Assembly: GCA_020051955.1 (NCBI GenBank)
Contig: JAGVQB010000045.1
Span: 1,356-65,355 of the forward strand
DNA: 64,000 bases
Source of the DNA: a bacterium
GTDB lineage: Bacteria; Patescibacteriota; Patescibacteriia; UBA9934; GWF2-40-263
Reading direction: 5' to 3'
Shown: in pieces, positions 15,555-48,430 of the stretch
How the letters are laid out: each line of letters starts with the position of its first letter
Numbering within the stretch: the stretch's first letter is position 1
Notes under the pieces: generated by a model
What the model saw: the letters and a program-made list of their open reading frames with translations, nothing else
The model's database searches: none
What the model was told of the DNA's origin: nothing
Program-made: the position numbers and the translations under genes

Positions 15555-15653
15555 ACCGTTATCTACAGATTACAGCATGGCGAATACGAATGTCGTGCGA
15601 ATATGCGAATAGGATCGTCCCATTAGCATATTCGCACGAGATTCGCATTAGTT
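15555..15653 (-). repeat. copy 1 of a ~100 bp palindromic interspersed repeat (IR-element) with CTGTAATCTGTAGAT box
   Basis: Near-perfect reverse complement of 48331-48430. It contains the internal palindrome TCGTGCGAATATGC...GCATATTCGCACGA and lies between convergent genes. Confidence 0.75.
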
Positions 15654-15664
15654 AAATTTCAGAT

Positions 15665-16066
15665 TCATACGTTATCCGTTTTCCTGAACGTCCACAGCGT
15701 GTTCATTATAAAGTTCCATATCAATACAATCGCCACGATGAAAACCTTCGCGGCAACATACCAGATTCCAACTTTTAGGAAGATGAGCATCAGCAGGCTG
15801 TTGATCGCGAAGCCCACGACAGAAACGCACAAAAATTTTGTGAATTGATGAACGACGCGTTTATTTTTGTCTTTATAAGTCCAGAGCTTATTCCACGAGT
15901 AATTATTGATGACCGCCAGCAAAAAGGAAATTGTGTTGGCGATAAGCACTGGCCAAGCGAAAACTTCCACGAGAAATATTAGCACGACAAAGTCAATTAG
16001 CGTGCCGCTAAATCCAACGGCTGAATATTTTAGAAATCGTCGTGTGTATATTTTTTTTGCCAGCAT
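15665..16066 (-). CDS. GtrA-family membrane protein (polysaccharide/glycolipid translocation)
   Basis: FLKYSAVGFSGTLIDFVVLIFLVEVF...NNYSWNKLWTYKD has the typical GtrA (PF04138) layout with 4 TM helices. Start set at the ATG at 16066. Confidence 0.8.
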   Translation of the reverse strand: MLAKKIYTRRFLKYSAVGFSGTLIDFVVLIFLVEVFAWPVLIANTISFLLAVINNYSWNKLWTYKDKNKRVVHQFTKFLCVSVVGFAINSLLMLIFLKVGIWYVAAKVFIVAIVLIWNFIMNTLWTFRKTDNV

Positions 16067-16152
16067 ATTAGAAGTTTGACAGCATGTGGTATAGACCACG
16101 CTTCTTTATTGAAGCTTTAAACTCACTTTAAACTCACTTTAAAGTGAGTTAT

Positions 16153-17661
16153 TCACAGGAGTTTTCCTTGCAATAGTCCGGATTTTTTGGCTTCTTCACT
16201 TAAAAACCTTGGGTGTAATTTGAATGCCACATTGGGGTCTTGTTTTTTTTCGGTAGTTCGTACTAACACTTCTTTTCCAATCAATTCTTCGAGCCTTGCG
16301 TTAGTAAAAGGTCTTGACCTACCAAGAAGTTTTTCGACCTCGCTTGGGCGCACCTCCCCCTTCTCTTCAATGAGCTCAAGAATATTGTAGTGGGCTTCTT
16401 CCAAGCCGAGTTTTGTCAACTCGTTTTCATTGATGAAAGGCTTCGGTTCGGTCTTAATTTTTTCAGGGACAAGGGTTGCACGAAATAACACGCGGAACGC
16501 ACCAGCTTCTTCAAGAAATTCCGGTTCAGGCAGCCGAACGTCCCGCATCACTCTACGCATTCTTTCGATACCTGAGCCGCGTTTTTCCATGAATCCTCCC
16601 ATGCGGACAAGTGCTTCCGCGATCGTTGCGTTTCGTGAGCGGGGAGCGAAGTCGCCCCGTATAACAATTTCAATTGTTAATGGTGGTATGAATCCGCCTG
16701 GATTGAGTATAGACACCGACGTGCCCCTGACTCGAAGATGAGTCTCAGCTAATGAGTCGCGATAGTCCCGGTGTACAACCGCATTGACCACGGCCTCTCT
16801 AAGAGCCTCAAGAGGGATGACAGGAGTGTTAATTCGTCGGAAGCCGGCAATACGCGCGGCGACCGGAATATGACGCCGGATGAAAGCTTCAACGGCCCGA
16901 AGTTGATCGAAGAGCGTTCCACCGAATGTCTGGAGGTCATCCCAATCGTTTTGTTCCTCGTTCATTTTCACATCGGCCTTTATAACGGCATGAGGCAGAA
17001 AGTTTTGCGGATTTTTACCAAACAATAAGATTCCAGCGATGGTTGGCACAAAATTTCCATCCGTTCTTTTACTGACGAATCCTTCCCTCGAAAGAAGAGT
17101 CATTAAATCTTTCGTAGAAAATTCGTTAAAGCTCGTCTTTTTTAGATAACCTTCCGCGGCGTTCAAATCAAGGTCTTCGACACTGGCCGCTTCGAGTAGC
17201 ATACGATCTTGCGGATCAGGGCTTCGATCACGACACATCTGGGCGATCTGGTCATCAGAGGCCTCGATATTGGAACTGCCAATGCGAACAAAAGGTCTTT
17301 CGTAGCCGCGGATTTTATATGGTGGGCGGGGACCCTTTGGACAACGAACGATTACGATTTTCTGGCCTTTGAATTCCGTTATCTCTACGCTAGGTGAAAC
17401 ATCCAAATCAGGAACGTTGCCCCTCAATTGTTGGAAAAAACTATGCTCCAATTGTTGCGGGTTTGGCACTCCAACAACCTCGCCTGTCTTATCACGAATG
17501 CCAAAAAGAATTGTTCCGCCCTTGGTATTGTAAAAAGCAGTCAACGATCGCATGACGTGCAATTTATGTTCTTGCGCTTCGGTAGCCGAGAGATCAGCCT
17601 TGAGTTCGATGTGGTCATTCTCAAGCCCAGCTATTGCTTCTTGGATTTCAATTTCTGTCAT
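16153..17661 (-). CDS. Schlafen/AlbA_2 (divergent AAA) domain protein with C-terminal HATPase_c_4-like domain; putative regulator
   Basis: 502 aa. The N-terminal IELKADL...GGTILFGIRDKTGEVVG pattern is typical of AlbA_2/divergent-AAA domains. The C-terminal half resembles the RecG-C-terminal-like ATPase domain fused to a wHTH. Confidence 0.7.
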   Translation of the reverse strand: MTEIEIQEAIAGLENDHIELKADLSATEAQEHKLHVMRSLTAFYNTKGGTILFGIRDKTGEVVGVPNPQQLEHSFFQQLRGNVPDLDVSPSVEITEFKGQKIVIVRCPKGPRPPYKIRGYERPFVRIGSSNIEASDDQIAQMCRDRSPDPQDRMLLEAASVEDLDLNAAEGYLKKTSFNEFSTKDLMTLLSREGFVSKRTDGNFVPTIAGILLFGKNPQNFLPHAVIKADVKMNEEQNDWDDLQTFGGTLFDQLRAVEAFIRRHIPVAARIAGFRRINTPVIPLEALREAVVNAVVHRDYRDSLAETHLRVRGTSVSILNPGGFIPPLTIEIVIRGDFAPRSRNATIAEALVRMGGFMEKRGSGIERMRRVMRDVRLPEPEFLEEAGAFRVLFRATLVPEKIKTEPKPFINENELTKLGLEEAHYNILELIEEKGEVRPSEVEKLLGRSRPFTNARLEELIGKEVLVRTTEKKQDPNVAFKLHPRFLSEEAKKSGLLQGKLL

Positions 17662-17737
17662 AGTTTTGTGTCATAGGTTCCCAAAAGGGGCTTCCAGTTA
17701 TTCATATACTCCGGAGATATTTTTCGTCCGCTCGGTT

Positions 17738-19066
17738 TTAGTAATTGAATCCTTGAACCCAAAATGCTTGTACTAGGAAAAAGAGATAGGGGGCTACGAG
17801 CAATCCTAGAATCGGCAACGCGACTCGGTTTTTTTGCGCGCTCGCGAATCCGTAGATAATTGGGAATAAGTAAACAGGATAAATGAAAATTGATTTTACG
17901 ATCCCCATATCAAAATAATGGTATCGATAACTGAAGTAGATCAACGCTGAAAAGAAAGACGCTGTGATGCCAATGCCAAGCAGGGGGAGAACGTGCTGTT
18001 TTTTCTTGAGTGCGAGCGCGATCATTACGACCATACCCCACAACATAATCACAGCGGGCACAATCGCGAGCCAAACGAGTTTCGATGTGAGAGAAAAGTT
18101 TTGTTTTGTTACGTACGTGTTGCTCACGGTTGTGCGCACGAGATCCTCCGCGGGCGCTTGTGCGATCAGGTCATCATTTTCCATCATTCCATAGTAGTCA
18201 TAAAACGAATCCGCGTAGAACATACTCGAGAACGCGCGCCCACCAGAGTACCAGTATGGAAATTTGAAAATGTCAGCGTCAAACCATGTGTAGTCTTTTA
18301 CTCTCTCGTCGAGCTTGAGTGGCATCGGTTCCAAAAAGTTCTGATTGTTTATCGATGGAGCCGCAAGGACATTTTGCGCGCGATAGATTTGCCAGGGCAG
18401 AACAAGAATCACAACAGGCACGATGAAAAGGGCGAGTTTGATCCACGCGGATTTTTTGTGGCGCCTAAGCAGATCAATCATTAGTGTGAGACCAACGAAC
18501 GCGATCGGGATGACGGCGGTAACTTTTGTCAAAAGTGCCAGTCCGCAGACAATGCCAAGGGCGAGTGTATTTTTCCGAGTTGTTTTTTCTTTCCGTTGAT
18601 AATCAATCAACAGGGTGATAATCAGAAAGATGAAGAAGTAATTCAACAGTTCGTTTGTCAAAAAGGTTGACGCCTCGGTCATTGCTGGCAACAGACTCAA
18701 CATGATAAACGAGGATAGGATCGCGAGCTTGTTCTTTGTTGCTTGTTTGATGATTCTGTAAACAAGAAAACTCACGCCCAAGCTCAAGACCACTTGCGCC
18801 AGACTCAACGTCTTCAAAATTGGTTTGATGTCTTCTGTAAACAACAAAACGATTTTCGCCACGCCCGCGTAGATCAAATAATACAAAGGTTCATGCCATG
18901 CCACATAGTTATCCTCAATTGATGGGAAACGGTTTTCTTGGGCGAGCGATAGAATATAATCAATGTGCCCACCGCCGTCGTAACCCCAAAACGGGTTGAA
19001 GTGCCAAGCGTTGTGGATGCGAAATATGATGAGAAAGATTGTAAAAAAAATTAAACATATTTTCAT
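17738..19066 (-). CDS. GT-C family membrane glycosyltransferase (ArnT/PMT, GT39/83-like)
   Basis: 442 aa polytopic membrane protein. The first periplasmic loop carries WHEPLYYLIYAGV, reminiscent of the E-x-PPL-YW motif of ArnT/PMT enzymes. Confidence 0.65.
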   Translation of the reverse strand: MKICLIFFTIFLIIFRIHNAWHFNPFWGYDGGGHIDYILSLAQENRFPSIEDNYVAWHEPLYYLIYAGVAKIVLLFTEDIKPILKTLSLAQVVLSLGVSFLVYRIIKQATKNKLAILSSFIMLSLLPAMTEASTFLTNELLNYFFIFLIITLLIDYQRKEKTTRKNTLALGIVCGLALLTKVTAVIPIAFVGLTLMIDLLRRHKKSAWIKLALFIVPVVILVLPWQIYRAQNVLAAPSINNQNFLEPMPLKLDERVKDYTWFDADIFKFPYWYSGGRAFSSMFYADSFYDYYGMMENDDLIAQAPAEDLVRTTVSNTYVTKQNFSLTSKLVWLAIVPAVIMLWGMVVMIALALKKKQHVLPLLGIGITASFFSALIYFSYRYHYFDMGIVKSIFIYPVYLFPIIYGFASAQKNRVALPILGLLVAPYLFFLVQAFWVQGFNY

Positions 19067-19114
19067 AAAGGCAACATAAGAATAATTGTAAAAGGTGAAT
19101 AATACAAACTGAAA

Positions 19115-19150
19115 TATTAAAAGCCCACCAGAGAATGGTGGGTTTGCGTT
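19115..19150 (-). terminator. rho-independent terminator downstream of pyrB
   Basis: CCCACCAGAGAATGGTGGG hairpin (19124-19142), followed on the minus strand by TTTTAATATTT. Confidence 0.6.
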
Positions 19151-19156
19151 TATGTC

Positions 19157-20119
19157 TCAGGTTGCGTGTCGCGCGTGCTTCCCGCGGTTGCGCGGCGGGA
19201 GGATCATTGAGAGAAGCGCCATGCGGACATAGAGACCGTTCTTTGCCTGAAGGAAGTACGCCGCGCGTGGATCACCATCGATCTCCACGGGGATCTCGTT
19301 GTTGCGTGGAAGTGGGTGCAAGATGATTGAGCCTGGCTTCATCCGTGCGACCAATTCTGGCGTGAGGCAGTAGTCACTACCGTCTGACGAGACACCCTCG
19401 ACCCCTTGATGTCGTTCCTTCTGCACGCGGGTCATGTACACCACGTCCGCGTCGTCGATTACGTCTTGGAGATGCTCGCTTTCGAATATACCCAGCCTCC
19501 TCATCGCGAGTTGAGTTCGAAGATTCTGTGGCAGTCGCAGCGCTCGCGGTGAGATGAAGCTCATTCGCGTTTGCGCGAGGTCCAGTAGGTGCGCGAGCGA
19601 GTGGACGGTTCTGCCGTACAGATGATCGCCAACGAATGCCACGTGTAGGTTTTTTGGATCTCCGATTTTTTCCACGATCGTGAAGAGATCCAGGAGCGCC
19701 TGCGTGGGATGCTCGCCGTTTCCATCACCAGCGTTGATGATTGGTACAGGACTCACGGCGGCGGCGCGCGCGGCGGCTCCGAGTTCTGGGTGGCGCAAGA
19801 TGATTGCGTCCGCATATCCACCGATCACGCGTATCGAATCTTCCAGTGTCTCTCCCTTGGTAGCGGAGGAGAAATGCCCCGCGCTCTCGGTTCCGATGAC
19901 CCTGGCGCCTTGAAGTTGCGCGGCAGTGTCAAACGATAGACGTGTGCGCGTTGATGGTTCGTAGAAGATCATCGCCACCACGCGACCCACGAGCACTGGT
20001 TCGCACAGTCCGTGATCCACTCCGAAGCGCATTTGGCGCGCTCGGGTGAAGATCTCCTCGATCAGCCTGGGGTCTTGGAATTGGTCCGCACTTAGGACAT
20101 GCTGAAGTTCTGTTCCCAT
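19157..20119 (-). CDS. pyrB: aspartate carbamoyltransferase catalytic subunit
   Basis: Contains the STRTR and HPTQ carbamoyltransferase motifs. ATG at 20119 is preceded by AGGAGG (20123-20128). The track's upstream extension across the tRNA region was rejected. GC is about 59 %, above the local background. Confidence 0.9.
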   Translation of the reverse strand: MGTELQHVLSADQFQDPRLIEEIFTRARQMRFGVDHGLCEPVLVGRVVAMIFYEPSTRTRLSFDTAAQLQGARVIGTESAGHFSSATKGETLEDSIRVIGGYADAIILRHPELGAAARAAAVSPVPIINAGDGNGEHPTQALLDLFTIVEKIGDPKNLHVAFVGDHLYGRTVHSLAHLLDLAQTRMSFISPRALRLPQNLRTQLAMRRLGIFESEHLQDVIDDADVVYMTRVQKERHQGVEGVSSDGSDYCLTPELVARMKPGSIILHPLPRNNEIPVEIDGDPRAAYFLQAKNGLYVRMALLSMILPPRNRGKHARHAT

Positions 20120-20228
20120 TCTTACCTCCTTGAAACCAGGGAGAGTATATCGGGGATAAAAAGTTTGGGCAACAGAGGTTTCTCTCTTGCCAGGGCATAA
20201 AAGATAAGTTAGTATTTTGGGGAAATAG

Positions 20229-20303
20229 GCGGGTATCGTATAGCGGTTATTATTCCAGTTTTCCAAACTGGTGATGCGGGTTCGACTCCCGCTACCCGCT
20301 CCA
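20229..20303 (+). tRNA. tRNA-Gly (anticodon TCC), 75 nt
   Basis: Hand-folded cloverleaf: acceptor GCGGGTA/TACCCGC, anticodon stem CCAGT/ACTGG, loop TTTCCAA, T-arm GCGGGTTCGACTCCCGC, and an encoded CCA. Confidence 0.85.
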
Positions 20304-20402
20304 TCCCGTTCAAACATTGCGCCATCACCGTTAAACCGTTTGGAAGTGACAATGTCACTTCCTGTGGGGTTTACCGATTATGTCGCGGAGTTTGAACGGG
20401 AT
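20303..20402 (+). repeat. MITE-like ~100 bp element, copy A (13 bp terminal inverted repeats ATCCCGTTCAAAC / GTTTGAACGGGAT)
   Basis: Abuts the 3' end of tRNA-Gly. It is about 80 % identical to 46304-46403, with shared termini and a shared core CATCACCGTTAAACCG...GGTTTACCGATT. Confidence 0.7.
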
Positions 20403-20416
20403 CCATTTATCAACAC

Positions 20417-20470
20417 GGGACGTAGCTCAGCCCGCTTGTGCTCCCGCCATTAATGGATGCGCGGCTGGGA
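20417..20470 (+). pseudogene. tRNA-Pro 5' fragment (pseudo-tRNA)
   Basis: GGGACGTAGCTCAG matches the first 14 nt of the downstream tRNA-Pro, and GAGCGCCTG matches its D-stem/anticodon-stem junction. Foreign sequence lies in between, and there is no T-arm or acceptor 3' half. Confidence 0.45.
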
Positions 20471-20512
20471 GCGCCTGATCCACGGGTTTGGTCTGAAATA
20501 AAAACTTAATAT

Positions 20513-20588
20513 CGGGACGTAGCTCAGTAGGTAGAGCGCCTGGTTTGGGACCAGGAGGTCGCAGGTTCGAGCCCTGTCGTCCCGACCA
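20513..20588 (+). tRNA. tRNA-Pro (anticodon TGG), 76 nt
   Basis: Acceptor CGGGACG/CGTCCCG, anticodon stem CCTGG/CCAGG with loop TTTGGGA, T-loop TTCGAGC, discriminator A and encoded CCA. Confidence 0.85.
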
Positions 20589-20740
20589 TTCGACTACCGT
20601 TGTTTTTTACAACGGCAGTCGAATGTCCCGAGCGAGCGCTAGCGAGCCGAGGGGCTGGTGGGTAACAACCGCTCATGGTCTGCGACCGTGTTGTGAAAAG
20701 AAGAGACTGAGGGTTCAAGACTCACTGGCTTGACCAGACA

Positions 20741-20768
20741 AAAAAATCGACGATCGTCGATTTTTTTG
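20741..20768. terminator. bidirectional rho-independent terminator
   Basis: AAAAAAATCGACGATCGTCGATTTTTTT: a perfect palindrome flanked by an A-run and a T-run. Confidence 0.65.
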
Positions 20769-20812
20769 TCATCAATAACGTTTGGCAGAAGGCAGGTTAA
20801 ACATTCAATTTT

Positions 20813-20840
20813 AAAAACGGATCTATTCGATCCGTTTTTA
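20813..20840. terminator. bidirectional terminator at the 3' end of tRNA-Phe
   Basis: AAAAACGGATCTATTCGATCCGTTTTTAAA. Confidence 0.6.
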
Positions 20841-20842
20841 AA

Positions 20843-20917
<75 letters not shown>

Positions 20918-20983
20918 AAACAACTTTCAGAATTGGCAATCTGCCTAAACAAATGTGGCCCACCACGTCGCTCGCGAGCGACG

Positions 20984-21356: not shown

Positions 21357-21390
21357 ATAAAAAGCGACACGCGTATCGTGTCGCTTTGCG
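21357..21390 (-). terminator. rho-independent terminator of the secreted-protein gene
   Basis: AAAGCGACACGCGTATCGTGTCGCTTT hairpin followed by a T-run on the minus strand, about 20 nt after the stop at 21412. Confidence 0.6.
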
Positions 21391-21411: not shown

Positions 21412-22317
21412 CTAGTCTTCGCGCGGCAGGCTTGCGAGCCACTCTCTTCTACCATTGAGTTTCGGGACGACCTCGACCTCGTATTCCCAGCCGTAATGCG
21501 CCGGGATCTCAAGAATCGATTCAGGATACGATGGCGATGTGAGTTGATGGCGTCCTCCATGATTGTCAGTGGCTATCACGGAGAACTTGTGACCTTTTTG
21601 CGCGCGAAGCATTCTTGTCCCTGGGAGAAGAATGACGCGGGCAGGTGAGGTCTGAATGGAGTACTTGTCGAAGCGCAAGAACTGGTCGCAGGCTTCGCTC
21701 AAGTTGATGACCGCGAGGCGCCGGAGCGTTACGCGAGTGACAACCAGACGTTCGCTTCCGCCCGTTCTCACAACCACCGGGTCTGGCGCGTCGTAGAGGC
21801 GATCATCGATCAGGAGCGTTCTTGGGAACTTGATTCTGACGCTGGTTGTCCCATCGTGCGGGATTCCCAGCCATCTCTCGCCGTTATTCCCCGGTTGCCA
21901 TGGCACGGCCTTGTCGATGACTAGTTCGCCACCGACCAGCCCGGATAGCTTGAGCGCGACAACGCGTTCGCACATTCCATCTGGAAGCGAACGTTGCTGG
22001 CGCACGTAGTCCTGTCGCATACCAAGCGGCATCCAGTCTCGAAGGGACACAGGGCTCTCCACGGAGCACTTCTCGGTCCACGAGTCGTGCAACGTGTTAT
22101 CTTCCGTCAGCGCATCGCCGTCGATCAGCTCGAAGGCAATCCAAAGCAAGCCGTCTTCTTTGCGCGATCGTGGGGCATCGTCGTTTGTTGTTGTGAACGA
22201 CGTCCAGATTGTGCCATCGTCCTCGAACGTTGATTGTGCCCCGGCAATCTCTGGGAAAAACCAGGCGATTGGGATGATGAGAATGAGGGCGAAGAGGTTC
22301 AAGCGGTTTCGTTCCAT
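21412..22317 (-). CDS. secreted hypothetical protein (301 aa) with N-terminal signal peptide
   Basis: ATG at 22317 with AAGGAGA 8 nt upstream. MERNRLNLFALILIIPIAWFFPEIAGAQS is a signal peptide. GC is about 58 %. No confident family; the ATDNHGG stretch is not diagnostic. Confidence 0.7.
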   Translation of the reverse strand: MERNRLNLFALILIIPIAWFFPEIAGAQSTFEDDGTIWTSFTTTNDDAPRSRKEDGLLWIAFELIDGDALTEDNTLHDSWTEKCSVESPVSLRDWMPLGMRQDYVRQQRSLPDGMCERVVALKLSGLVGGELVIDKAVPWQPGNNGERWLGIPHDGTTSVRIKFPRTLLIDDRLYDAPDPVVVRTGGSERLVVTRVTLRRLAVINLSEACDQFLRFDKYSIQTSPARVILLPGTRMLRAQKGHKFSVIATDNHGGRHQLTSPSYPESILEIPAHYGWEYEVEVVPKLNGRREWLASLPRED

Positions 22318-22441
22318 TTTCTTTTTCTCCTTGAGGCGGGAACGAAAAACCCATCTGCACACAATTGTGCGGATGGGGGGTTGGGTACTTATATTCCAGC
22401 ATGATTTTTTGATCCCGTCAACGGGGCTTCTGTGGAAAACT

Positions 22442-22470
22442 AAAAACATTCGGCAGTGCCGAATGTTTTG
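22442..22470. terminator. bidirectional terminator ~135 nt downstream of the 16S 3' end
   Basis: AAAAACATTCGGCAGTGCCGAATGTTTT: an 11 bp perfect stem flanked by A and T runs. Confidence 0.7.
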
Positions 22471-22601: not shown

Positions 22602-24505
<1,904 letters not shown>

Positions 24506-25349: not shown

Positions 25350-26084
25350 ATGGCAAAGAAAAAGATTCGACGTTTCGACATTCTGACAATTTTTCCAGAA
25401 ACAGTGACGCCCTATGTTCAGGCGTCGATTTTGGGTCGCGCGCAGGAGGCTGGGTTGATTGAGGTTAAGACGCATGACCTTCGCGTGTGGTCGACTGATA
25501 AGCATCATAAAGTTGATGACACGCCATATGGCGGGGGCCCTGGGATGGTGATGAAGGTTGAACCGTTTGAGAGGGCGGTGAGGGAACTCAAGGGAGGAGG
25601 GGTGAGGGGTGAGGGGAGAGGGAGGAGGGAGGAGGTGAGAGGGAAGACGCGGGTGATTCTTACGTCGGCTTCTGGTGAGACGTTCACTCAGAAAGACGCG
25701 AAGAGGTTGGAAAAGTACGATCACCTTATCTTTTTGTGCGGTCGTTATGAGGGAGTTGATCATCGCGTAGAAGAGTATGTCGCGGATGAAGCGTTTTCGA
25801 TCGGGGAGTATGTTTTAACTGGCGGTGAGTTACCTGCAATGGTGATGATAGACGCGATCGCGCGTCTGGTGCCTGGTGTGATTGAAAAAGATTCGCTCGC
25901 GCGCGAGTCGCATAGCAAGAAAGGTTACCGCGAGCATCCACAATATACGAAGCCCGCGGTTTACAGTCCCGGGGCTAGTGGGAGGGGTAAGACGATTGCA
26001 CAGTGGGAGATTCCCGACGTCCTTCTCTCCGGCGATCACAAAAAAATCGAGGAGTGGCGCAACAAACATTCAGTTACAAAATAA
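25350..26084 (+). CDS. trmD: tRNA (guanine37-N1)-methyltransferase
   Basis: FDILTIFPE, TPYGGGPGMVMKVEP and YEGVDHRV...VLTGGELPAMVMIDAIARLVPGV are TrmD SPOUT motifs. It also contains a G-rich low-complexity insert, KGGGVRGEGRGRREEVRGKT. Confidence 0.92.
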   Translation: MAKKKIRRFDILTIFPETVTPYVQASILGRAQEAGLIEVKTHDLRVWSTDKHHKVDDTPYGGGPGMVMKVEPFERAVRELKGGGVRGEGRGRREEVRGKTRVILTSASGETFTQKDAKRLEKYDHLIFLCGRYEGVDHRVEEYVADEAFSIGEYVLTGGELPAMVMIDAIARLVPGVIEKDSLARESHSKKGYREHPQYTKPAVYSPGASGRGKTIAQWEIPDVLLSGDHKKIEEWRNKHSVTK

Positions 26085-30517: not shown

Positions 30518-32788
30518 TTACCTCCTCGCAACCCCATTCTGCGTGATTTCCTCCAGGTGGACTGACAACAAGCTCGAAATGCCGTCAGTGCCCATTGTTA
30601 CGCCATAGAGAATATCTGCTTTTTCCATTGTCGCGCGGTTGTGGGTGATGACGATGAATTGGCTAGTGCGCGCGAGGTCCTCCAGGATCGCGGCGAAGCG
30701 GATTGTGTTGGCTTCATCAAGCGCGGCATCAACCTCGTCGAGCACAACAAACGGCGCTGGGTTTACTGCCATGATTGCGGAGACAAGAGCGATTGATGTA
30801 AGCGCGCGCTCACCACCGGAAAGCAGGTTTAACGCCTTGAGCCTTTTCCCAGGCGGGGTTGCTTGGATGTCGATGCCGACAATTTTTTCCTCCGCGTTTA
30901 CCCGTTCCCTGTTCACCGTTCCCTGTTCACTGTTCCCTCCCTCTACCGTTTCCTCCACCTCTTCCCTCGTCAACTTCACCAACGCGCACGATCCTCCACC
31001 GAAAAGCATTTTGAAATATCGCTCAAACTCTTTATTGATTTTGGAGAACGTTGCCTTTGACTGTTTTTCAATTTGTTCGTCGAGTTCCTTGATTATTTTT
31101 TCTGTTGACGCGAGAGCGGCGTTGAGGTCTTTGACCTGCTCATCAAGAAATTCGAAACGATCTTTTGTCTCGCCGTATTCTTTTACTATTTCCGGATCAA
31201 TTCCACCTATGAGTTCGAGCTTGTATCGAAGGCGCTGGATTTCGGGATAGGCTTCATCGGTTTGGATTTTGGATTTTGGATTTTGGATTTTTTCCTGCCT
31301 CACCCCCACCGCCCTCTCCTTCATAAACTCATCCATCTCCCGCGTGAGGGCTTTTTGGCGTTCCTCAAAACGCACTAAAGCGATTTGGAGAGTGTTGCGC
31401 TCGTTTTCTAGCAAGTGGGTTTGATTTTGTTTTTCGCGCAGGGAATGTTGCAAGCCGATAAGTTCACTTCGGGCAGTGCGTTCCTTACTTGTGTAGTTGT
31501 CGATTGTTTTTTCAAGCTCGTCAATTTCTTTTACTAGATTTTGTTCTTGCGTTCGCTTGGTTTTCAGTTCCTCAACCATTTTTGGATCAGGCTTGATGTC
31601 TTCTGGGTTTGGGCGCTGAAGACTTTTGGAAAGTTTTTGTGACCGCGTAAGAAGTGACTCGATTCCATCCAAAATTGCCTCCAGCCCTTTCAGCCCTCGC
31701 AGTCCTTTTAGTCCTTCCACCATTCCCTCAACCTCCTCAACGATTTTCAACAAAGGAAGCGGCGCCCAATTTGATTGCGCGCGCGCTCGCGCGAGTTCGA
31801 TTTCTTTTTCGAGCGAGAATTGCTCGCTCCGCAAAGCCTCACGTTTTTTTCCAAGCGCTTTGTATTGATTCTTCAAACCTACCAGTTGTGTGTCCTCATC
31901 GGTCCCAAAGTTTTCAGCGCGCTCTGATTCTTTTTCAAGCGTGTGAAGTTCTGCCCTCTCGGTTTTAATTTTTTTCTCAATCTCATCAAACCCCTGTCTT
32001 GCTGTTTCCAATTCGTCCATCAGGTTCCACCATTGAGAACCGTAATAACACGACTCAAGCTCGTGGAGGGCTTTTTCAATCTCACCGCGTTGTTCAAGAC
32101 GTACTGCTTGGCGCTTAAGAGAACGAAGCCGCGGTTCGATTTCCCGCAACAGCATTTCAACCTCTGTCAGATTTTCGTGTGTGCGCGTGAGTTTTAACAA
32201 TGCCTCGTGTCGTTTGATTTGGAATGGTTTTACTCCGGTGGCATCGTCAAAAAAATCTTTGCGCTCCTCTGGAGATGAAACAAGAATGTGGTCAATCATG
32301 CCTTGTCCGATAACGCAGTACGAACGCTGTCCAACGTTTGCTTCTGCCAGAAGTAGTTGGATATCAGCAAGGCGAACAGAGCCCTCGTTGAGGAGATAAT
32401 CGGAAGTTCCATCTCGAAACAGCCTCCGCGTGATTACTACCTCTGGGTATTCAAGTGGCATTGTTTTGTCTTGGTTGTTGAAGGTCAAAGATACTTGCGC
32501 AAAGCCAGATCGTCCTTTGCCATCAGAGCCAGAAAAAATTACATCCTCTGATTTTTTTCCACGCAAAAGTTTAAGACTTTGTTCACCCAGCACCCATCTG
32601 ATCGCGTCAGCAAGGTTTGATTTACCGCTACCATTTGGACCAACGATGGAGGTGATGGGGAATCGTAATTCCCCCCCTGCCCGAGGGGGGGTCAGGGGGG
32701 GTGGGAGTGCGGCCGGTGGGAGAAAAGAAAGCGTTGTTTTTTTTGCAAACGTTTTGAACCCCTGCAGTTCCAGTTTAGTAAGAAACAT
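30518..32788 (-). CDS. SMC/RecF-superfamily ATPase with long coiled coils (SMC-like, 756 aa, no obvious hinge) carrying several low-complexity inserts
   Basis: N-terminal Walker A (GPNGSGKSNLADAIRWVLGEQS), a long heptad-rich middle, and C-terminal signature plus Walker B (LSGGERALTSIALVSAIMAVNPAPFVVLDEVDAALD). The inserts LPPAALPPPLTPPRAGGELR, KIQNPKSKIQ and VEETVEGGNSEQGTVNRERVNAE are encoded by simple repeats. Confidence 0.8.
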   Translation of the reverse strand: MFLTKLELQGFKTFAKKTTLSFLPPAALPPPLTPPRAGGELRFPITSIVGPNGSGKSNLADAIRWVLGEQSLKLLRGKKSEDVIFSGSDGKGRSGFAQVSLTFNNQDKTMPLEYPEVVITRRLFRDGTSDYLLNEGSVRLADIQLLLAEANVGQRSYCVIGQGMIDHILVSSPEERKDFFDDATGVKPFQIKRHEALLKLTRTHENLTEVEMLLREIEPRLRSLKRQAVRLEQRGEIEKALHELESCYYGSQWWNLMDELETARQGFDEIEKKIKTERAELHTLEKESERAENFGTDEDTQLVGLKNQYKALGKKREALRSEQFSLEKEIELARARAQSNWAPLPLLKIVEEVEGMVEGLKGLRGLKGLEAILDGIESLLTRSQKLSKSLQRPNPEDIKPDPKMVEELKTKRTQEQNLVKEIDELEKTIDNYTSKERTARSELIGLQHSLREKQNQTHLLENERNTLQIALVRFEERQKALTREMDEFMKERAVGVRQEKIQNPKSKIQTDEAYPEIQRLRYKLELIGGIDPEIVKEYGETKDRFEFLDEQVKDLNAALASTEKIIKELDEQIEKQSKATFSKINKEFERYFKMLFGGGSCALVKLTREEVEETVEGGNSEQGTVNRERVNAEEKIVGIDIQATPPGKRLKALNLLSGGERALTSIALVSAIMAVNPAPFVVLDEVDAALDEANTIRFAAILEDLARTSQFIVITHNRATMEKADILYGVTMGTDGISSLLSVHLEEITQNGVARR

Positions 32789-34485: not shown

Positions 34486-34786
34486 GGACAATACGTGGAC
34501 AAACCGGGGATGGTTTACAAGAAATCCTCGGTTTTTCAAACAAAAAACAGCGCTCTTGCAAAGGCTGTCATCGTCAGGTAAACTTTCGATGTAAACAAGC
34601 TTGACAACTTTCGATTTCCGGGCTAGACTTGAGCGTTAAAACTCAAGCCTCTTTCTTTCATTCTATTTAGTGATCTGCAGGCACGACAAGCATGGGATTT
34701 CAATGTATGGATACATCAGGTTTTCGGACTCGATCTATCCTTACGTGAAATTTCTTGCCTGCAGGTTACTGAATGGAATAATCATC

Positions 34787-34809
34787 AAACGTCGCGAGAC
34801 GTTTTTTTG
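34787..34809 (+). terminator. rho-independent terminator ~320 nt downstream of clpP (possible sRNA end)
   Basis: AAACGTCGCGAGACGTTTTTTT. It is preceded at 34602-34636 by TTGACA-17-TAGACT. Confidence 0.55.
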
Positions 34810-35017
34810 ATTTCGTAACCTCTTGTCGGATAGTACGTCGATTGCGAGTGAGCATGCAAGGAAAACTGTGGATAAAAATAGTCGGGCGGTGGCATATTGT
34901 TATATTGATAAATTGTTAAATGGTTAAATTGTTGTGGAGCAAGACGATGGGCGGCAGACAAAACGTCTATCTAGACAACCATTTAACAATATAACCATTT
35001 AACAATTTAACCCTCTG

Positions 35018-42954: not shown

Positions 42955-43088
42955 CTGGGTAACGGTATTGTGGCTTGCATCAGCGAAAATATCGTAACCG
43001 AGTAATGGCGAAGGTAGGTCGTTGGCTCTTGACCGATCGTCAAAAAGCTGGTAGGTTTTTGTGGCTAGGAACCTGCAAAAAGAGAGGA

Positions 43089-43382
43089 ATGAAAATGCCG
43101 ACGATGAAGTACAACGTCCTGATCGGTGACGACGGCGAACGGCGCGAGGTGGTGGTCGAGTACTCCGACATCACCGCGCTGGTGAGGGACATTCTCGACG
43201 TAGGGAGGATCCATTCGCCGACAGCGCGCACCAGTGAAAGGGATCGTGTGGAGAGTGCGTCGGGTTTGCCGCTTCTCAAGGCGCTCACGGACTGGCGACC
43301 CGGGGATTCGGTCACGATCCTCAATGCGGAGGAAGCACCACTCCGAAGTCGAGAATTCTTCGACGTGGCCTTCACTGGTTAG
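43089..43382 (+). CDS. small hypothetical protein, paralog 2 (GC-rich)
   Basis: GAGAGG then ATG at 43089. The N-terminus MKYNVLIGDDGERREVVVEYSDITALVRDILDVG is alignable with paralog 1. Confidence 0.55.
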   Translation: MKMPTMKYNVLIGDDGERREVVVEYSDITALVRDILDVGRIHSPTARTSERDRVESASGLPLLKALTDWRPGDSVTILNAEEAPLRSREFFDVAFTG

Positions 43383-43506
43383 TTGCCCCGTACACGATTC
43401 GTGCGCCTGTGAAATACCAGGCGTTTTATTTTTGGAAAAATAAAACCGCCCGTTTATCTTCCGCACGTGGGTGCGGCCGATTTTGGGCGGAGAGAGAACG
43501 TCTGAC

Positions 43507-45138
43507 CTAGTGTGCCGCCTTGCCCTTGGGGATCGCCTTGCGGATGAGCACGCACAGCACGAACCCTATCACTGCTGGCGGGATCATCCACAGCGGCCAA
43601 TCTGACCAGTTGTGCCAGTCAGCGGCCGCCGCCTCCCTGGGAAGCCTGGCACCGTACCAGAATGCCATGAGTGAACTTCCCAGGTACACGCATCCGTCGA
43701 TGATGCCCACTGCGATGCCCGCGTTCTTGGATCCGCCGAAGTCCTGCGTCGCTGTCCCAGAGAGCATTCCGTGCACGCCGATGACGCACAGGGACGCGAT
43801 CAGGCACAGCCACATCACAGCGGCGTTCCCAAGCACGAAGTACATCACGCACGCGCACGCGATCATGCCGCCGTAGAGTATGGCCGCGACCGGTCCGCGT
43901 CTTGATTCAAAGAACCTGTCACTGATGATGCCTGCGAACATGCCACCGAGGATTCCCGCCAGGCAAAGGAGCATACCCCAGTGAGGCTCGAGGTATGAGC
44001 CAACGTGGGTTGCCTTCATGAAGCTTGGTCCCCACTGCATGATCGCCTGCCTGACGAAGCCAGTGCAGAACTCGATCGCGGCTACCGCGACGATGATCGG
44101 GTTGCGCGCCATCATCAGGAAGACCTTGTGAGGCGGGTTTGTTGGTCCCTTCTCGCCAGATGTCGCATCTCCTGTGTCGAAGTCCTCGAGCCCAGCATCC
44201 TTGGGTGAGTTGCGGATGAGCTTGTGGCCAACCACGAAGCTCACGCACAGGATGGCTGCTGGGACAAAGAACACGAGGTGGACCTGGTGCTCCCAGATCT
44301 TGAGGAGTAGACCGTTCCAGTCATAGGCAAAGTAGAGTCCAAGCGAGATCAGGATCCCGAAGATGGCACCAAAGACTCCACGTTCCTTCACGTGGAACCA
44401 CGGCGAGTTCACCTTGACGATGGCGACAGCGCCGAAGCTCTGGAAGTACATATTGATCGCGTAAAGAACACAGAGGGCAGGCATGAGCTTGGAGGTGGCA
44501 CTCACATTGTGCTCGATACCGAAGAGCCCACGGAACCAGACGAAGCCGCTGAAGATCGGCTTGGCGAATTCATTCACCACGTTACCAAGCGCGCCGATTT
44601 CTCCGTTGCTTCTCACGACTTCCCACGCCACGACGCCCATCAGGACATTGGCGATGATGACCCCAGCGGCCGAGATCAGGATCGTCAGCCTTCCGCCGTA
44701 TCGGTCAGTGAGCGGACCATTGAGCAAGAACGACAGTCCATACACCAACGTGCCGATCCCGAAGATGATCCCGAAGTCAGCGTTGTCCATGAGACCGAAC
44801 TGGCTGAACTCCTTCTTGCTCACTGTCAGGTTGTAGCGCGCCATGTAGAGGAACGCGTAGATCGCTCCTAGTGGAACCCAGTTCATCACCCGTCTCTTGA
44901 TGAGGTCGGGCTTGAGATGGTCCATCGCGAGCTTGGGTTGACGCGCGAACACGAACACGATGACAACGAGCAGAAGCAGGATTGGGAGGAACTCCTTCAG
45001 GGAGATCAGGAACACGCTTTCCTTGCTTGTACCTGCCTCTTGCGCGGCAAGTGCGAGCGTTGGGAAGAGACTCATTGCCAGGGCAGAAAGAGCTACGAGA
45101 ATTTTGGACACCGGCGCCTCCTTGTGGGTTTTGCCCAC
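43507..45138 (-). CDS. MFS transporter, organophosphate:Pi antiporter (GlpT/UhpC)-like
   Basis: 543 aa with 12 TM helices. YMARYNLT...YGLSFLLNGPLTDRYGGR resembles the OPA-family N-terminal signature. GC is about 56 %. Confidence 0.7.
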   Translation of the reverse strand: MGKTHKEAPVSKILVALSALAMSLFPTLALAAQEAGTSKESVFLISLKEFLPILLLLVVIVFVFARQPKLAMDHLKPDLIKRRVMNWVPLGAIYAFLYMARYNLTVSKKEFSQFGLMDNADFGIIFGIGTLVYGLSFLLNGPLTDRYGGRLTILISAAGVIIANVLMGVVAWEVVRSNGEIGALGNVVNEFAKPIFSGFVWFRGLFGIEHNVSATSKLMPALCVLYAINMYFQSFGAVAIVKVNSPWFHVKERGVFGAIFGILISLGLYFAYDWNGLLLKIWEHQVHLVFFVPAAILCVSFVVGHKLIRNSPKDAGLEDFDTGDATSGEKGPTNPPHKVFLMMARNPIIVAVAAIEFCTGFVRQAIMQWGPSFMKATHVGSYLEPHWGMLLCLAGILGGMFAGIISDRFFESRRGPVAAILYGGMIACACVMYFVLGNAAVMWLCLIASLCVIGVHGMLSGTATQDFGGSKNAGIAVGIIDGCVYLGSSLMAFWYGARLPREAAAADWHNWSDWPLWMIPPAVIGFVLCVLIRKAIPKGKAAH

Positions 45139-45237
45139 GTTTTTGAGTGTCTGTTTGCCGTGAGCGAACGGCAGTATTGACCCTAATACGACAGAGGGAA
45201 ATGTGCAAACAAAAAACCGAGGAGGTACCTCGATTAT

Positions 45238-45708
45238 TTATTGGAGTGGATGACGGCGAAGTTGAGCGGCTGTTTCAGCGTCAATTGATGTCGAGGAGCT
45301 GTAAAAACTTAGAGCCTTGTCGCGAGATCCTCGTATCTCTTCATCGCGCACGTTATCGAGAGCGTCTTGTGACTTTTGCCATTCTTGCAATAGCCGGTCA
45401 GCCTCACCATTTTTTGATCGCCCAAGACGTTCATTAAGAGAGGCTTGTTTGTATTTTGCTTCTGCAAGAAGGACCTTTGCTATCTCGACACTTCCACGCC
45501 CACCTTTACCACGAGATGCTTCTTGCTGTGCTTGCGCGACTTTTTGTTCGAGACCCAATATCTTGCGCACGCCTGTTTCGACTGGGTCTTCGCGATATGT
45601 AAAATCAGCTACCCGTTCTTTTCCGCCAGTCGCCTTAATATCCGGCACCTCCTCAAATACAATTCCTTCATCTGGCGCGGATTCCCTGCGTGGTCTGCCG
45701 AACGCCAT
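45238..45708 (-). CDS. hypothetical charged protein (156 aa)
   Basis: ORF following the lipoprotein gene on the same strand, with a terminator at 45206-45232. No family. Confidence 0.45.
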   Translation of the reverse strand: MAFGRPRRESAPDEGIVFEEVPDIKATGGKERVADFTYREDPVETGVRKILGLEQKVAQAQQEASRGKGGRGSVEIAKVLLAEAKYKQASLNERLGRSKNGEADRLLQEWQKSQDALDNVRDEEIRGSRDKALSFYSSSTSIDAETAAQLRRHPLQ

Positions 45709-45713
45709 AGAAA

Positions 45714-46184
45714 TTATTTTATCGCTCTTATTACTGTGATCGAAGTCTGCCCATCCATTTCACTTACAGCCACCGAAATTATAACATCGCCTTTTTGAAA
45801 CACCTTCATAAGTCTTCCGTTGTAATTGGAATCAGTTTCCATCTCCCACCCATCGCCCAAGAGTTCGTCTTCATACCACTGCGCGACAGAAGCTAGACTA
45901 GCGGTCGTCGTCGAGAGAAGCGTCGCGCCTTGGTTTGGGATAACTGATGCGGCGAGGATTTGCGCGCCTTCATACACAGGCACGTCAGATGGAAAGTCGT
46001 TTGGGATTTGCGCGTTTTCGCCAATGCTCGCGTACGCGCCAGTCTCTTTGTCTTCGTAGGTATAAGTGTCGTCCGCGATGTTGATTTCACCAGAGTCGCT
46101 TGGTTGCGCGGTTTGTTGAGTACGGTTAAAACATCCGCCACCAATGAGCACAAGGGTAAAGAGTGGGAACAGGAGAAATTTCAT
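45714..46184 (-). CDS. putative lipoprotein (signal peptide plus LIGGGC lipobox-like)
   Basis: MKFLLFPLFTLVLIGGGCF followed by a Thr/Ser/Asp-rich mature domain. Confidence 0.55.
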   Translation of the reverse strand: MKFLLFPLFTLVLIGGGCFNRTQQTAQPSDSGEINIADDTYTYEDKETGAYASIGENAQIPNDFPSDVPVYEGAQILAASVIPNQGATLLSTTTASLASVAQWYEDELLGDGWEMETDSNYNGRLMKVFQKGDVIISVAVSEMDGQTSITVIRAIK

Positions 46185-46303
46185 AAGATGGTCGAACATA
46201 CCACTTAAGGACCGATCGGACCTTAAATGGTATGAGTTATTGTTAAAAGTTTTGAAATAAGTGATGATTGTTACTACTTTACCATTATTTTAAGCTCAAT
46301 TCC

Positions 46304-46403
46304 ATCCCGTTCAAACACCGCGTCATCACCGTTAAACCGCTGACAAGTGACGTCGTCTCTTCCTGCGCGGTTTACCGATTTTGGCGCAGCGTTTGAACGG
46401 GAT
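46304..46403 (+). repeat. MITE-like ~100 bp element, copy B, in the typA leader
   Basis: ATCCCGTTCAAACACCGCGTCATCACCGTTAAACCG...GGTTTACCGATT...GCGTTTGAACGGGAT. It is about 80 % identical to 20303-20402 and shares the same 13 bp termini. Confidence 0.7.
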
Positions 46404-46446
46404 CTATCTTGACCGATCGGGTTCCTTCGTATACTCTTCTCGCGTT

Positions 46447-48270
46447 ATGACACGCGACGACATAAGAAACATCGCAATCATCGCTCACGTTGACCATGGT
46501 AAGACGACCTTGGTGGACGCGCTTTTGAAACAGAGCAACACTTTTCGCGACGCGCAGGCAATGGGTACGACTATCATGGACAGCAACGAGATCGAGCGCG
46601 AGCGAGGCATTACGATTTTTGCCAAGAACGCCGCGATCGAGTGGAAGGGGATAAAGATCAACATCGTTGATACGCCAGGGCACGCTGACTTTGGCGGCGA
46701 GGTTGAGCGAGTGATGAATCTTGTTGACGGCTGTCTCCTGCTTGTTGATGCCAAAGAGGGGCCAATGCCGCAGACAAAATTTGTGCTCAAGAAGGCGCTT
46801 GAGGCTGGGCACAAGATCATCGTTGTTATCAATAAGATTGATAAGAAAGACGCGCGCCCAAGCTGGGTCGTTGATAAAACCTTTGATTTGTTTATTGATT
46901 TAGGTGCAACCGACGAGCAGGCGCGCTTTCCTGTTTTGTATGCTTCCGCTATCAATGGCGTGGCAGGAACTTCGCAAGAGATGGCTTCAATGAAAGGTAT
47001 CGAGCCCATTCTTGATTCAGTTGTCGAGTACATCAGCGGACCTTCGGGCGATCCTGCCGATCCTTTGCAGATTTCCGTTGTGAACATCTTTTACGATAAC
47101 TACAAAGGTCGTGTCGCGATTGGGCGCGTCGTGAACGGAGTCGCAAAAAACGGAATGCAGGTGAAGCATGTGAAGCGTGATGGAAGCGAGAAGCTCGGAA
47201 AAATTACCGCACTGCAGATATTCAAAGGGTTGGGTCGTGTTGACGCGCAAGAGGTCAACGCAGGAGAAATAGTCGCGGTCGCGGGAATCGAGGACGCGCA
47301 CATTGGCGAGTCGTTTGTTGATCCACTTGAAGGGAAGGCTCTACCGGTGATGTCTATCGAGGATCCAACAGTCAAAATGACGTTTGGCGCAAACACGTCA
47401 CCTTTTGCCGGGAAAGAAGGTGAGTATTCAACAGCAAGACATTTGAAGGAACGTCTTGAGCGCGAACTGTTGAACGACGTTGCGCTAAGGATGGAAAAGG
47501 GGGAAGGGGACTCTCAATTTATTATTTCTGGGCGCGGCGAGTTGCACTTGGCAATTTTGATCGAGAAGATGCGCAGGGAAGGATACGAACTTCAGGCCTC
47601 GAGGCCGCAGGTTATTTTCAAAGAAAAGGAAGGTGTGGTGATGGAGCCTTTTGAGGCGGTGTCCACTGAATGTCCGGATACATTTTCTGGAATCGTTATC
47701 GAAAAGATGGGTAAGCGGCGAGGAGAGATGAAGGATATGAAGGTTGAGAATGGTACTTCGTTTATGGAGTTTGAGATTCCTACGCGCGGGCTTATCGGTT
47801 ATCGAAGTGAGTTTTTGACTGATACAAAAGGACAGGGAGTGTTGAATACTCTACTGCTTGGGTACCGCGAGAAAGTTGGGGACGTTACAGCAGGCGGTCA
47901 CGGTGCCATGATCTCGATGGAACAAGGTGAGACAATGGGTTACGCGCTCACCAACTTGCAGGATCGTGGTGGTATGTTCGTTGGCCCCGGCGTGCAAGTG
48001 TATGTGGGAATGGTGATTGGGGAGAACTCGCGCAACGAGGATATGGATGTGAATCCGTGTAAAGAAAAGAGACTGTCGAATATGCGTTCAAAGGGTGATG
48101 GCGCGTCAGTCGCGCTGGAACCACCTCGACATATGACTCTTGAAATGTGCTTGGAGTTTTTGGCAGACGACGAACTTCTGGAAGTCACACCAAAGTCGCT
48201 ACGCATCCGCAAAACGATTCTTGATCCAGTGCGCCGCAAGCGTGCTGGGATGCAAACCGAGACCTCGTGA
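46447..48270 (+). CDS. typA: translational GTPase TypA/BipA
   Basis: IRNIAIIAHVDHGKTTLVD, DTPGHADFGGEVER and NKIDK G-motifs, with BipA-type domains downstream. ATG at 46447. Confidence 0.93.
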   Translation: MTRDDIRNIAIIAHVDHGKTTLVDALLKQSNTFRDAQAMGTTIMDSNEIERERGITIFAKNAAIEWKGIKINIVDTPGHADFGGEVERVMNLVDGCLLLVDAKEGPMPQTKFVLKKALEAGHKIIVVINKIDKKDARPSWVVDKTFDLFIDLGATDEQARFPVLYASAINGVAGTSQEMASMKGIEPILDSVVEYISGPSGDPADPLQISVVNIFYDNYKGRVAIGRVVNGVAKNGMQVKHVKRDGSEKLGKITALQIFKGLGRVDAQEVNAGEIVAVAGIEDAHIGESFVDPLEGKALPVMSIEDPTVKMTFGANTSPFAGKEGEYSTARHLKERLERELLNDVALRMEKGEGDSQFIISGRGELHLAILIEKMRREGYELQASRPQVIFKEKEGVVMEPFEAVSTECPDTFSGIVIEKMGKRRGEMKDMKVENGTSFMEFEIPTRGLIGYRSEFLTDTKGQGVLNTLLLGYREKVGDVTAGGHGAMISMEQGETMGYALTNLQDRGGMFVGPGVQVYVGMVIGENSRNEDMDVNPCKEKRLSNMRSKGDGASVALEPPRHMTLEMCLEFLADDELLEVTPKSLRIRKTILDPVRRKRAGMQTETS

Positions 48271-48330
48271 TTTAAAAGGCGGGAGCAAAGGCTCCTGTCT
48301 TTTTTGTAGGTAGCCTGCGCCTATTTTGGG

Positions 48331-48430
48331 TAACGAATGCGAATCTCGTGCGAATATACTAATAGGACGATGCTATTCGCATATTCGCACGACATTCGTA
48401 TTCGCTCTACTGTAATCTGTAGATCGGTAG
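48331..48430 (+). repeat. copy 2 of the ~100 bp palindromic interspersed repeat (IR-element) with CTGTAATCTGTAGAT box
   Basis: Reverse complement of 15555-15653 with about 95 % core identity. It lies between the typA terminator and the 3' end of the minus-strand MFS gene. Confidence 0.75.

Follow-up and report, generated by a model that had tools for sequence, protein, structure and literature searches.

A hairpin-forming repeat of about 100 nucleotides at two convergent gene junctions in a Uhrbacteria-like genome

Bacterial miniature inverted-repeat transposable elements (MITEs) include RUP in Streptococcus pneumoniae (107 nt) and the Correia elements in Neisseria (about 100-155 nt). A classical MITE is bounded on either side by terminal inverted repeats and produces a target duplication of fixed length (TA). 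The Rickettsia palindromic elements (RPEs) are small palindromic repeats in the reduced genome of a host-dependent bacterium and typically lie inside open reading frames (ORFs). Bacteria of the candidate phyla radiation (CPR, or Patescibacteria) have small, streamlined genomes, in which mobile DNA is usually said to be scarce. We describe here a non-coding hairpin repeat family of about 100 nt, which we name F1, present in two full copies (A and B) in a 64-kb stretch of CPR DNA from contig JAGVQB010000045.1, hereafter referred to as the window. F1 also calls for comparison with the REPINs, which have conserved ends and a variable spacer, and whose proposed intermediate is asymmetric, consisting of a hairpin and a single-stranded tail (PMC3116915). 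The two F1 copies and their parts are as follows:

15552-15654, minus strand: F1 copy A, full unit of 103 nt; order on the minus strand TAAC, hairpin, 4-nt linker, box, GGTAAC
15583-15649, minus strand: hairpin module of copy A, with 32-nt arms at 15583-15614 and 15618-15649 and a 3-nt tip
15561-15575, minus strand: box CTGTAATCTGTAGAT of copy A, an exact match
48331-48431, plus strand: F1 copy B, the complete 101-nt unit, with the BipA terminator on one side and on the other the stop codon of a major facilitator superfamily (MFS) gene (48434-48436)
48334-48404, plus strand: hairpin module of copy B, with 32-nt arms at 48334-48365 and 48373-48404 and a 7-nt tip
48410-48424, plus strand: box CTGTAATCTGTAGAT of copy B, an exact match

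A repeat search across the window returned the inverted arms 15561-15654 and 48331-48424, which are 94 nt long, 93% complementary and 32,676 nt apart. When a 2-nt indel is allowed, 93 of 103 alignment columns are identical over a unit of 101-103 nt, in agreement with the near-exact reverse-complement pair of the original prediction. Homology ends sharply, the 40-nt flanks of copies A and B being unrelated. F1 is a discrete unit with sharp borders and 93% identity at two unrelated loci.

Read in the orientation of copy B, the unit consists of TAAC(K), the hairpin, CGC, a 4-nt linker, the box CTGTAATCTGTAGAT, 1-3 nt and GGTA(R)C. The hairpin is near-perfect and spans about 70-75 nt, with paired arms that are 88% complementary in each copy; a tail of 21-23 nt, made of two TCTGTAR heptamers and then GGTA, is found on one side only, where 30 nt in all extend beyond the palindrome. 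Both the long internal palindrome and the terminal box followed by GGTA, which had been noticed earlier, are therefore present in each full copy, with arms of 32 nt and one to three nucleotides between box and GGTA. Three of the four arms contain the motif TCGTGCGAATATGC unaltered, and the remaining arm contains it with a single mismatch; the arms themselves are composed of degenerate tandem units (TGCGAATA, twice), with four CGAAT in each. Differences between the copies are located in the hairpin tip (3 changes), in the linker (CATG versus TCTA, 3 of 4 bases) and at the end of the tail. All three stem-region differences lie in the apical part, while the lower stem (22 + 33 nt) and the 15-nt box are identical; the longest perfect runs are 33 and 22 nt. 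No compensatory changes are seen, only identity. Compared with shuffled sequences, the hairpin is far more stable as RNA on both strands (z from -5.3 to -8.3, the minus strand of copy A reaching -50.4 kcal/mol at z -8.3) and also as DNA (z -6.2 and -7.3). A small-ORF reading of F1 was discarded, because the frames that begin with ATG are of unequal length in the two copies and extend into the MFS gene in antisense.

F1 shares with REPINs a size of about 100 nt, an extragenic location and two conserved inverted halves around a less conserved middle, together forming a long hairpin; the REPIN arrangement of inverted conserved halves with a variable spacer is thus seen in F1. However, the F1 arms are not short palindromic REP (repetitive extragenic palindromic) units, as the arm AATGCGAATCTCGTGCGAATATGCTAATGGGA contains direct CGAAT repeats only, and no internal palindrome of at least 4 bp with a usable loop. 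There is no conserved GTAG 5' of a REP palindrome either (GTAG adjoins the hairpin in copy B only), and the window contains no RAYT gene. Furthermore, F1 carries a 3' tail of heptamer repeats, and two copies are known here against the tens to hundreds of REPINs. A second likeness is with the IS200/IS605-derived palindrome-associated transposable elements (PATEs) and HUH/Y1 hairpin elements, which also have subterminal hairpins, asymmetric ends and no obligatory target duplication. Such elements insert beside a short specific motif, for which GGTARC or TAAC would be the candidates in F1, but they possess two distinct end hairpins where F1 has one long hairpin and a weak tail hairpin, and no TnpA/TnpB is found in the window. 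The asymmetric architecture of F1, with its long subterminal hairpin and tail, resembles HUH/Y1-mobilised elements and the REPIN intermediate more than classical MITEs. As for RPEs, the window resembles them in harboring short repeats in frame in essential genes (TsaD, TrmD), but both F1 copies are intergenic and share no sequence similarity with these elements.

The host is close to Candidatus Uhrbacteria: among GTDB representatives, BipA is 82-83% identical to proteins of Uhrbacteria metagenome-assembled genomes, and its identity with metagenomic proteins reaches 91%. The DNA of the window is chromosomal. Its genes include rpoB, rpoC, ruvC, the 16S rRNA gene, five tRNA genes, trmD, rpsP and an SMC-like gene, as well as clpP, bipA, tsaD, tsaE, ftsH, an S1-domain gene, gyrA and rpmF. 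Copy A is located between the convergent genes for an AftA_N-like glycosyltransferase (13830-15545, plus strand) and GtrA (15665-16099, minus strand). Of the 119 nt that separate the AftA_N-like stop (15545) from the GtrA stop codon (15665-15667), 103 belong to this copy. The neighbors of copy B are bipA (true start at about 46447, end at 48270, plus strand) and the convergent MFS transporter gene (48434-49723, minus strand), in the order bipA stop, terminator, 25 nt, F1, 2 nt, MFS stop. In both cases the tail faces the converging gene and ends close to its stop codon, at 6 nt in copy A and 2 nt in copy B.

The convergent setting of both copies had been predicted correctly. Their immediate proximity to terminators holds for copy B, which follows a canonical one of sequence AAAAGGCGGGAGC-AAAG-GCTCCTGTCTTTTTT, and fails for copy A, next to which a terminator scan detects none:

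48274-48305 (approximate), plus strand: BipA terminator, an A-tract, hairpin and T-tract identified by folding and shared with the convergent MFS gene; it belongs to the context and lies outside F1

The idea that F1 itself acts as a bidirectional terminator is not supported. Like intrinsic bidirectional terminators, F1 lies between convergent 3' ends and forms a strong hairpin. However, the hairpin is followed by CGCUCUACUG or CGCCAUGCUG on one strand and by UUACCCAAAAU or AGUUAAAUUUC on the other, with flanking A/U tracts lacking and a U-tract on neither; its stem is about 30 bp long instead of the usual 5-15, and its sequence is 93% shared between unrelated loci. Terminator scans do not call F1 in either copy. 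Given that the hairpin has no U-tract behind it and that BipA is already served by a terminator upstream of copy B, we reject F1 as an intrinsic terminator.

Several relatives retain the gene pairs that flank F1. At site B, contig L096 (GCA_964359375.1; BipA 86% and MFS 55% identical at the amino acid level) has the same convergent pair separated by an 83-nt spacer, which contains the bidirectional terminator only, with the MFS stop 2 nt from its T-run. The corresponding spacer in the window is 163 nt long, of which 101 are F1. At site A, L092 (AftA-like protein 51% identical) shows the gene order of the window, namely a family 2 glycosyltransferase (GT2) gene, the AftA-like gene and a convergent gtrA, the last two with an overlap of 35 nt, and in L094 the spacer after GtrA is 8 nt. 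F1 thus differs in presence and absence at orthologous sites, which are empty in L096 and L092, these relatives being 51-86% identical at the amino acid level. Because relatives keep the same gene pairs without F1, comparison of these loci shows that F1 is an insertion at both full-copy sites, relative to the relatives compared. Given the distance of these relatives, the comparison documents a lineage-specific gain and not a recent movement.

The closest relatives at site A, L088 and L093 (75-80% amino acid identity), present a different, C-rich heptamer-like sequence after both stops, and their contigs then end. The sequence GTAGACC(C/T)CCC... is seen on both converging strands in these contigs, which originate from different runs, and C-rich heptamer sequence similar to a hairpin motif of the window (32661-32702 and 59371-59412) is found at both sides of the AftA-like/GtrA junction (2073-2091 in L088, 3325-3347 in L093). 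If both contigs show the same junction, this would be an inverted repeat of a different kind. The nearest relatives' contigs break off within 9-34 nt of the junctions that correspond to F1 sites.

Copy B is located at the edge of a bipA-tsaD stretch that varies among relatives and comprises MFS, APH-like and Fic genes in the window (48271-51948), a gene of 232 aa together with an APH gene on the opposite strand in L085 (4051-6080), and MFS, four other genes and APH in L096 (5993-10438). About 0.5 kb from copy A, a gene with Schlafen/AlbA_2 and HATPase_c_4 domains (16153-17661) is inserted between a PMT-like gene and gtrA; this is a lineage-specific insertion, since the gene is absent in L093, where the PMT-like and GtrA genes adjoin.

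Parts of F1 also occur outside the full copies. The 15-mer CTGTAATCTGTAGAT is found exactly three times in the 64 kb, at 15561-15575 (minus), 48410-48424 (plus) and 59453-59467 (plus); a search for the box with up to 3 mismatches is expected to yield 0.84 matches by chance. The third occurrence belongs to a site that we call C:

59424-59473, plus strand: site C, an irregular ATCTGTAA array ending in the box and AGGTAG; tail only, without hairpin module

The array has 4.9 units (59424-59464) and is closed by the box. The tail alone covers 59453-59473, in keeping with the solitary box after TCTGTAA repeats that had been reported near 59452-59472, and 26 of 30 positions are identical to the copy B tail. 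The S1 gene and a 226-aa gene diverge from a promoter region of 350 nt, in which site C is located. The first 110 nt or so upstream of the S1 gene align with L085, and the region of the array and box has no counterpart there. As the tail is also found alone at this site, it may be a module separate from the rest of F1.

The window contains a second palindromic repeat of about 103 nt, unrelated to F1, which we name F2. Its two copies (20303-20405 and 46304-46406) are 83% identical, and the family is bounded by terminal inverted repeats of 13 nt, ATCCCGTTCAAAC, that match perfectly. Upstream of bipA, the F2 copy forms a clean insertion of about 103 nt in a promoter region that is otherwise alignable with L083 and L085, and directly precedes a promoter-like site, TTGACC-N17-TATACT. 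TCCA is found directly before each of the two copies; in front of the first, it corresponds to the discriminator base and CCA of tRNA-Gly. The clean insertion of F2 means that this genome acquired small palindromic elements more than once. Directly after the first F2 copy, the initial 15 nt of tRNA-Pro (CGGGACGTAGCTCAG) are present at 20414-20428, 99 nt upstream of their position in the real gene (20513-20527); this duplicate may be the trace of an old insertion, or of an integration, at the tRNA gene.

Our preferred reading, which we hold with moderate confidence, is that F1 is a lineage-specific, non-coding dispersed foldback repeat of the selfish MITE/REPIN type, non-autonomous and mobilised in trans. 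Both copies lie where insertions are tolerated, and F1 would have been copied into the 3' spacers of convergent gene pairs because an insertion is least harmful there. The copying would probably be carried out by a trans-acting enzyme encoded elsewhere in the genome, which may recognize either the hairpin in single-stranded DNA, as HUH/Y1-type enzymes do, or the arms as inverted repeats. After insertion, the hairpin would form part of the transcribed 3' ends of the two converging genes, where it could stabilise or block transcripts incidentally without being needed as a terminator. Two short motifs may bear on the choice of insertion sites:

48310-48315, plus strand: GGTAGC, located 16 nt upstream of copy B and repeating the terminal GGTAGC of the element (48426-48431); a tentative target motif or target-site duplication
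15671-15678, minus strand: CGGATAAC, located 16 nt upstream of copy A and resembling the terminal CGGTAAC of the element (15552-15558); a tentative target motif or target-site duplication

GGTARC may be the preferred target motif.

A number of observations weigh against this reading. The direct repeats flanking the copies are marginal: in shuffling tests, the local alignment of one flank with the other yields p = 0.03 for copy A (AACGGATAAC...GAAATT versus AACGGTAAC..GAAATT) and a non-significant p = 0.18 for copy B, and the 16 nt between the upstream GGTARC and the F1 core are unrelated in the two copies. The full unit is asymmetric, being a hairpin with a tail, and its ends, TAAC... and ...GGTARC, are not complementary, so that the palindrome is internal and terminal inverted repeats would exist only if the hairpin of about 75 nt were the mobile unit by itself. 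The clustering of differences between the copies is not significant (3 of 8 within 4 nt, p ~0.09; identical run of at least 33 nt, p ~0.32). F1 is known from two full copies and one tail in the 64-kb window, where we detected no further copy, even a degenerate one. The exact hairpin-core pattern has no match in the GTDB species-representative genomes and only two, both unrelated, in JGI metagenome contigs: L001 is a simple 11+10+11 hairpin on an AT-rich contig of 1.48 Mb, and L002 adjoins an ORF whose translation resembles a non-LTR (long terminal repeat) retrotransposon reverse transcriptase and would thus be eukaryotic. The hairpin, F2 and box patterns have 0 matches in IMG/VR, BLASTN of the whole unit has none in plasmid and phage collections, and BLASTN and nhmmer searches for F1 in 1.25 Mb of relatives' loci returned nothing. 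Finally, no transposase, integrase, HUH (Y1_Tnp) or RAYT domain is present among the large ORFs of the window, and no autonomous insertion sequence (IS) with F1 ends is found within its 64 kb.

In support of the MITE/REPIN type, F1 is short, non-coding and structured, as MITEs are (50-500 bp; here 101-103 nt without a conserved ORF), and it resembles RUP and Correia elements in its size, fold-back structure, location beside or between genes and presence or absence between related genomes. It differs from these elements in its asymmetry and ambiguous duplication; F2 fits their class much better. The earlier label of REP/MITE-like is therefore apt for the kind of element, a discrete intergenic hairpin of about 100 nt that is absent at the relatives' sites, and does not extend to membership among REPs or classical MITEs. 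We file F1 as MITE/REPIN-like without established membership, because the REP-unit structure is lacking and so, unless the hairpin alone is the unit, are the terminal inverted repeats.

In Rfam 15, F1 has no match at the gathering threshold, the best sub-threshold matches being generic hairpins of plant and animal miRNA precursors at 28-31 bits, versus thresholds of 80; F1 is not a known RNA family. An integron attC site was ruled out on reading the sequence, as the ends show no RYYYAAC...GTTRRRY pairing and the context is one of convergent housekeeping genes. dif/Xer and parS sites were likewise set aside, as F1 has no 11-6-11 architecture and no evident likeness to their consensus sequences. 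In full-text searches on repeats in CPR, Patescibacteria or Uhrbacteria, we met no description of such elements. F1 is a new sequence family without detectable relatives, of a kind that is already known, that of the small palindromic intergenic repeats of many bacteria.

Among other explanations, the one that fares best, although we consider it rather unlikely, is that F1 is a selected cis-acting module, either a sequence-specific protein-binding site or a 3'-end RNA structure located downstream of genes, in which stem and box are under purifying selection while loop, linker and spacers drift. The pattern of conservation lends itself to this view, with blocks of 22, 33 and 15 nt separated by diverged positions (3 of 4 in the linker, 3 changes at the tip), and so do the four CGAAT motifs per arm and the recurrence of the box in the promoter region at site C. 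The tail also ends 2-6 nt from the converging stop codon in both copies, and GGTARC lies exactly 16 nt upstream of each; however, such coincidences of spacing are not assessable from two copies. F1 does not qualify as a conserved regulatory feature, given that it is missing in relatives in which these gene pairs persist. The lack of compensatory changes, the weak clustering of differences and the absence of a U-tract, a predicted promoter or an Rfam family also argue against a cis-acting role.

Somewhat less probable still, in our opinion, is an origin of F1 as a by-product of short-repeat dynamics, whereby 7-9-mer slippage would generate arrays, some of them inverted, and a patch would then be copied by template switching or microhomology-mediated gene conversion. 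The makeup of F1 is suggestive in this respect, as its arms consist of degenerate tandem units and its box of two TCTGTAR units. Short tandem arrays number about 16-20 in the window, where several form inverted pairs and others are located within genes; among them are an inverted pair of octamer arrays that abuts the VanW stop (34896-35012) and a 40-nt TTTGGAT array plus flank that recurs in two different genes with 83% complementarity. Imperfect, gapped flanking direct repeats also fit microhomology better than a target duplication of fixed length. However, array density is only about twice that of relatives (2.5 versus 1.35 per 10 kb), some of which have equal or higher values, which weakens the case for a lineage-specific burst of such arrays, and microhomology between donor and recipient cannot be demonstrated. 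When two unlinked loci share 100 nt at 93% identity and with sharp borders, the movement of an element as a unit is the more typical cause.

The differing linker and the occurrence of the box alone at site C allow F1 to be read as two modules. We may then speculate that a foldback hairpin of about 75 nt inserts site-specifically 4 nt from a pre-existing heptamer box, CTGTAATCTGTAGAT-GGTAR, of which site C would be an unoccupied target. More broadly, an undescribed activity that generates or targets repeats in this CPR lineage might also place the in-frame tandem arrays in TsaD, TrmD and SMC. We regard this scheme as doubtful.

It had also been proposed that the inverted copies mediate inversion of the 32.7-kb segment between them, which carries the 16S gene and the tRNA cluster. 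The copies are indeed inverted and 93% identical over 94 nt, and their perfect runs of 33 and 22 nt make a RecA-mediated exchange conceivable, such lengths being near the minimum for RecA-dependent exchange in E. coli. The proposal finds no support in the genomes, because both junctions are ancestral and GC skew is uniform. ClpP...BipA-(MFS)-...TsaD...FtsH-S1 is collinear and co-oriented in L084, L085 and L096, and L092 likewise preserves the arrangement of the GT2, AftA-like and convergent GtrA genes. Nearly all 2-kb bins, whether within the segment or beyond it, have a positive GC skew; cumulative skew rises throughout, and no reversed block is visible. No invertase or recombinase gene was found among the large ORFs of the window. 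Judged from gene order and skew, there is no fixed inversion of this segment, and we consider a role of the copies as substrates for its flipping very improbable. Finally, although repeats can cause mis-assembly and the nearest relatives' contigs do break beside these junctions, an assembly artefact (a mis-join or collapsed repeat) is the least credible explanation of all, as each copy lies between genes whose adjacency is seen independently in relatives and the 10 columns that differ between the copies indicate that they have not been collapsed.

Other repeats are found in the window. In-frame tandem arrays of 7-8-mers are present in tsaD (52330-52357 and 52668-52696), trmD (25591-25647) and the SMC-like gene (30902-30938 and 31261-31291), and recall the in-frame palindromic elements of Rickettsia. 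Compared with its L085 orthologue, TsaD is longer by about 10 and 2 residues at these arrays. The TTTGGAT array and flank shared in complementary form by the SMC-like gene and tsaD encodes a similar KIQNP..KIQ peptide in both. Two octamer arrays, at 34896-34933 (ATTGTTAA) and 34977-35012 (AACCATTT), are inverted with respect to each other and form a palindrome with 30-nt arms at the VanW stop codon; this palindrome, in the convergent clpP/VanW spacer, occupies the same kind of position as F1 and is built of tandem units. A hairpin motif with C-rich and G-rich strands, CCCCCTCC...GGAGGGG followed by GTCAGGGG, occurs at 32661-32702 and 59371-59412. Lastly, two 48-nt direct repeats (6654-6701 and 8115-8162, 96% identical), each with a small palindrome, flank an AbiEii/AbiEi toxin-antitoxin cassette (6734-8031) between rpoC and ruvC, and may mark the limits of a mobile cassette or else represent an operator that was duplicated.

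Two further features concern non-coding RNA. Downstream of clpP, the non-coding region 34656-34815 is 82% identical to L084, versus about 70% for neighboring genes, and ends in a terminator-like hairpin and T-run; it is a candidate small RNA, for which Rfam returned no family match. The 16S rRNA gene (22602-24505) spans 1904 nt against a model of 1533 nt, which corresponds to insertions of about 370 nt. It is located on the strand opposite to the leading strand deduced from GC skew and is not followed by a 23S gene, and a 345-aa ORF without Pfam match (21412-22449) separates it from tRNA-Ile.

With F1 and F2, at least two unrelated palindromic families of about 100 nt were gained in one Uhrbacteria-like lineage, and the gain of two families indicates that small non-autonomous repeats do spread in these genomes. 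F1 is thus of some local interest for CPR genomes; it leaves the general picture unchanged and is not surprising overall. Such repeats break short-read assemblies, as the contig ends of the nearest relatives 9-34 nt from the same junctions illustrate, and repeats of the F1 type are usable as strain markers. Should a cognate enzyme exist, the repeats would be a sign that a transposition system is active in an episymbiotic lineage.

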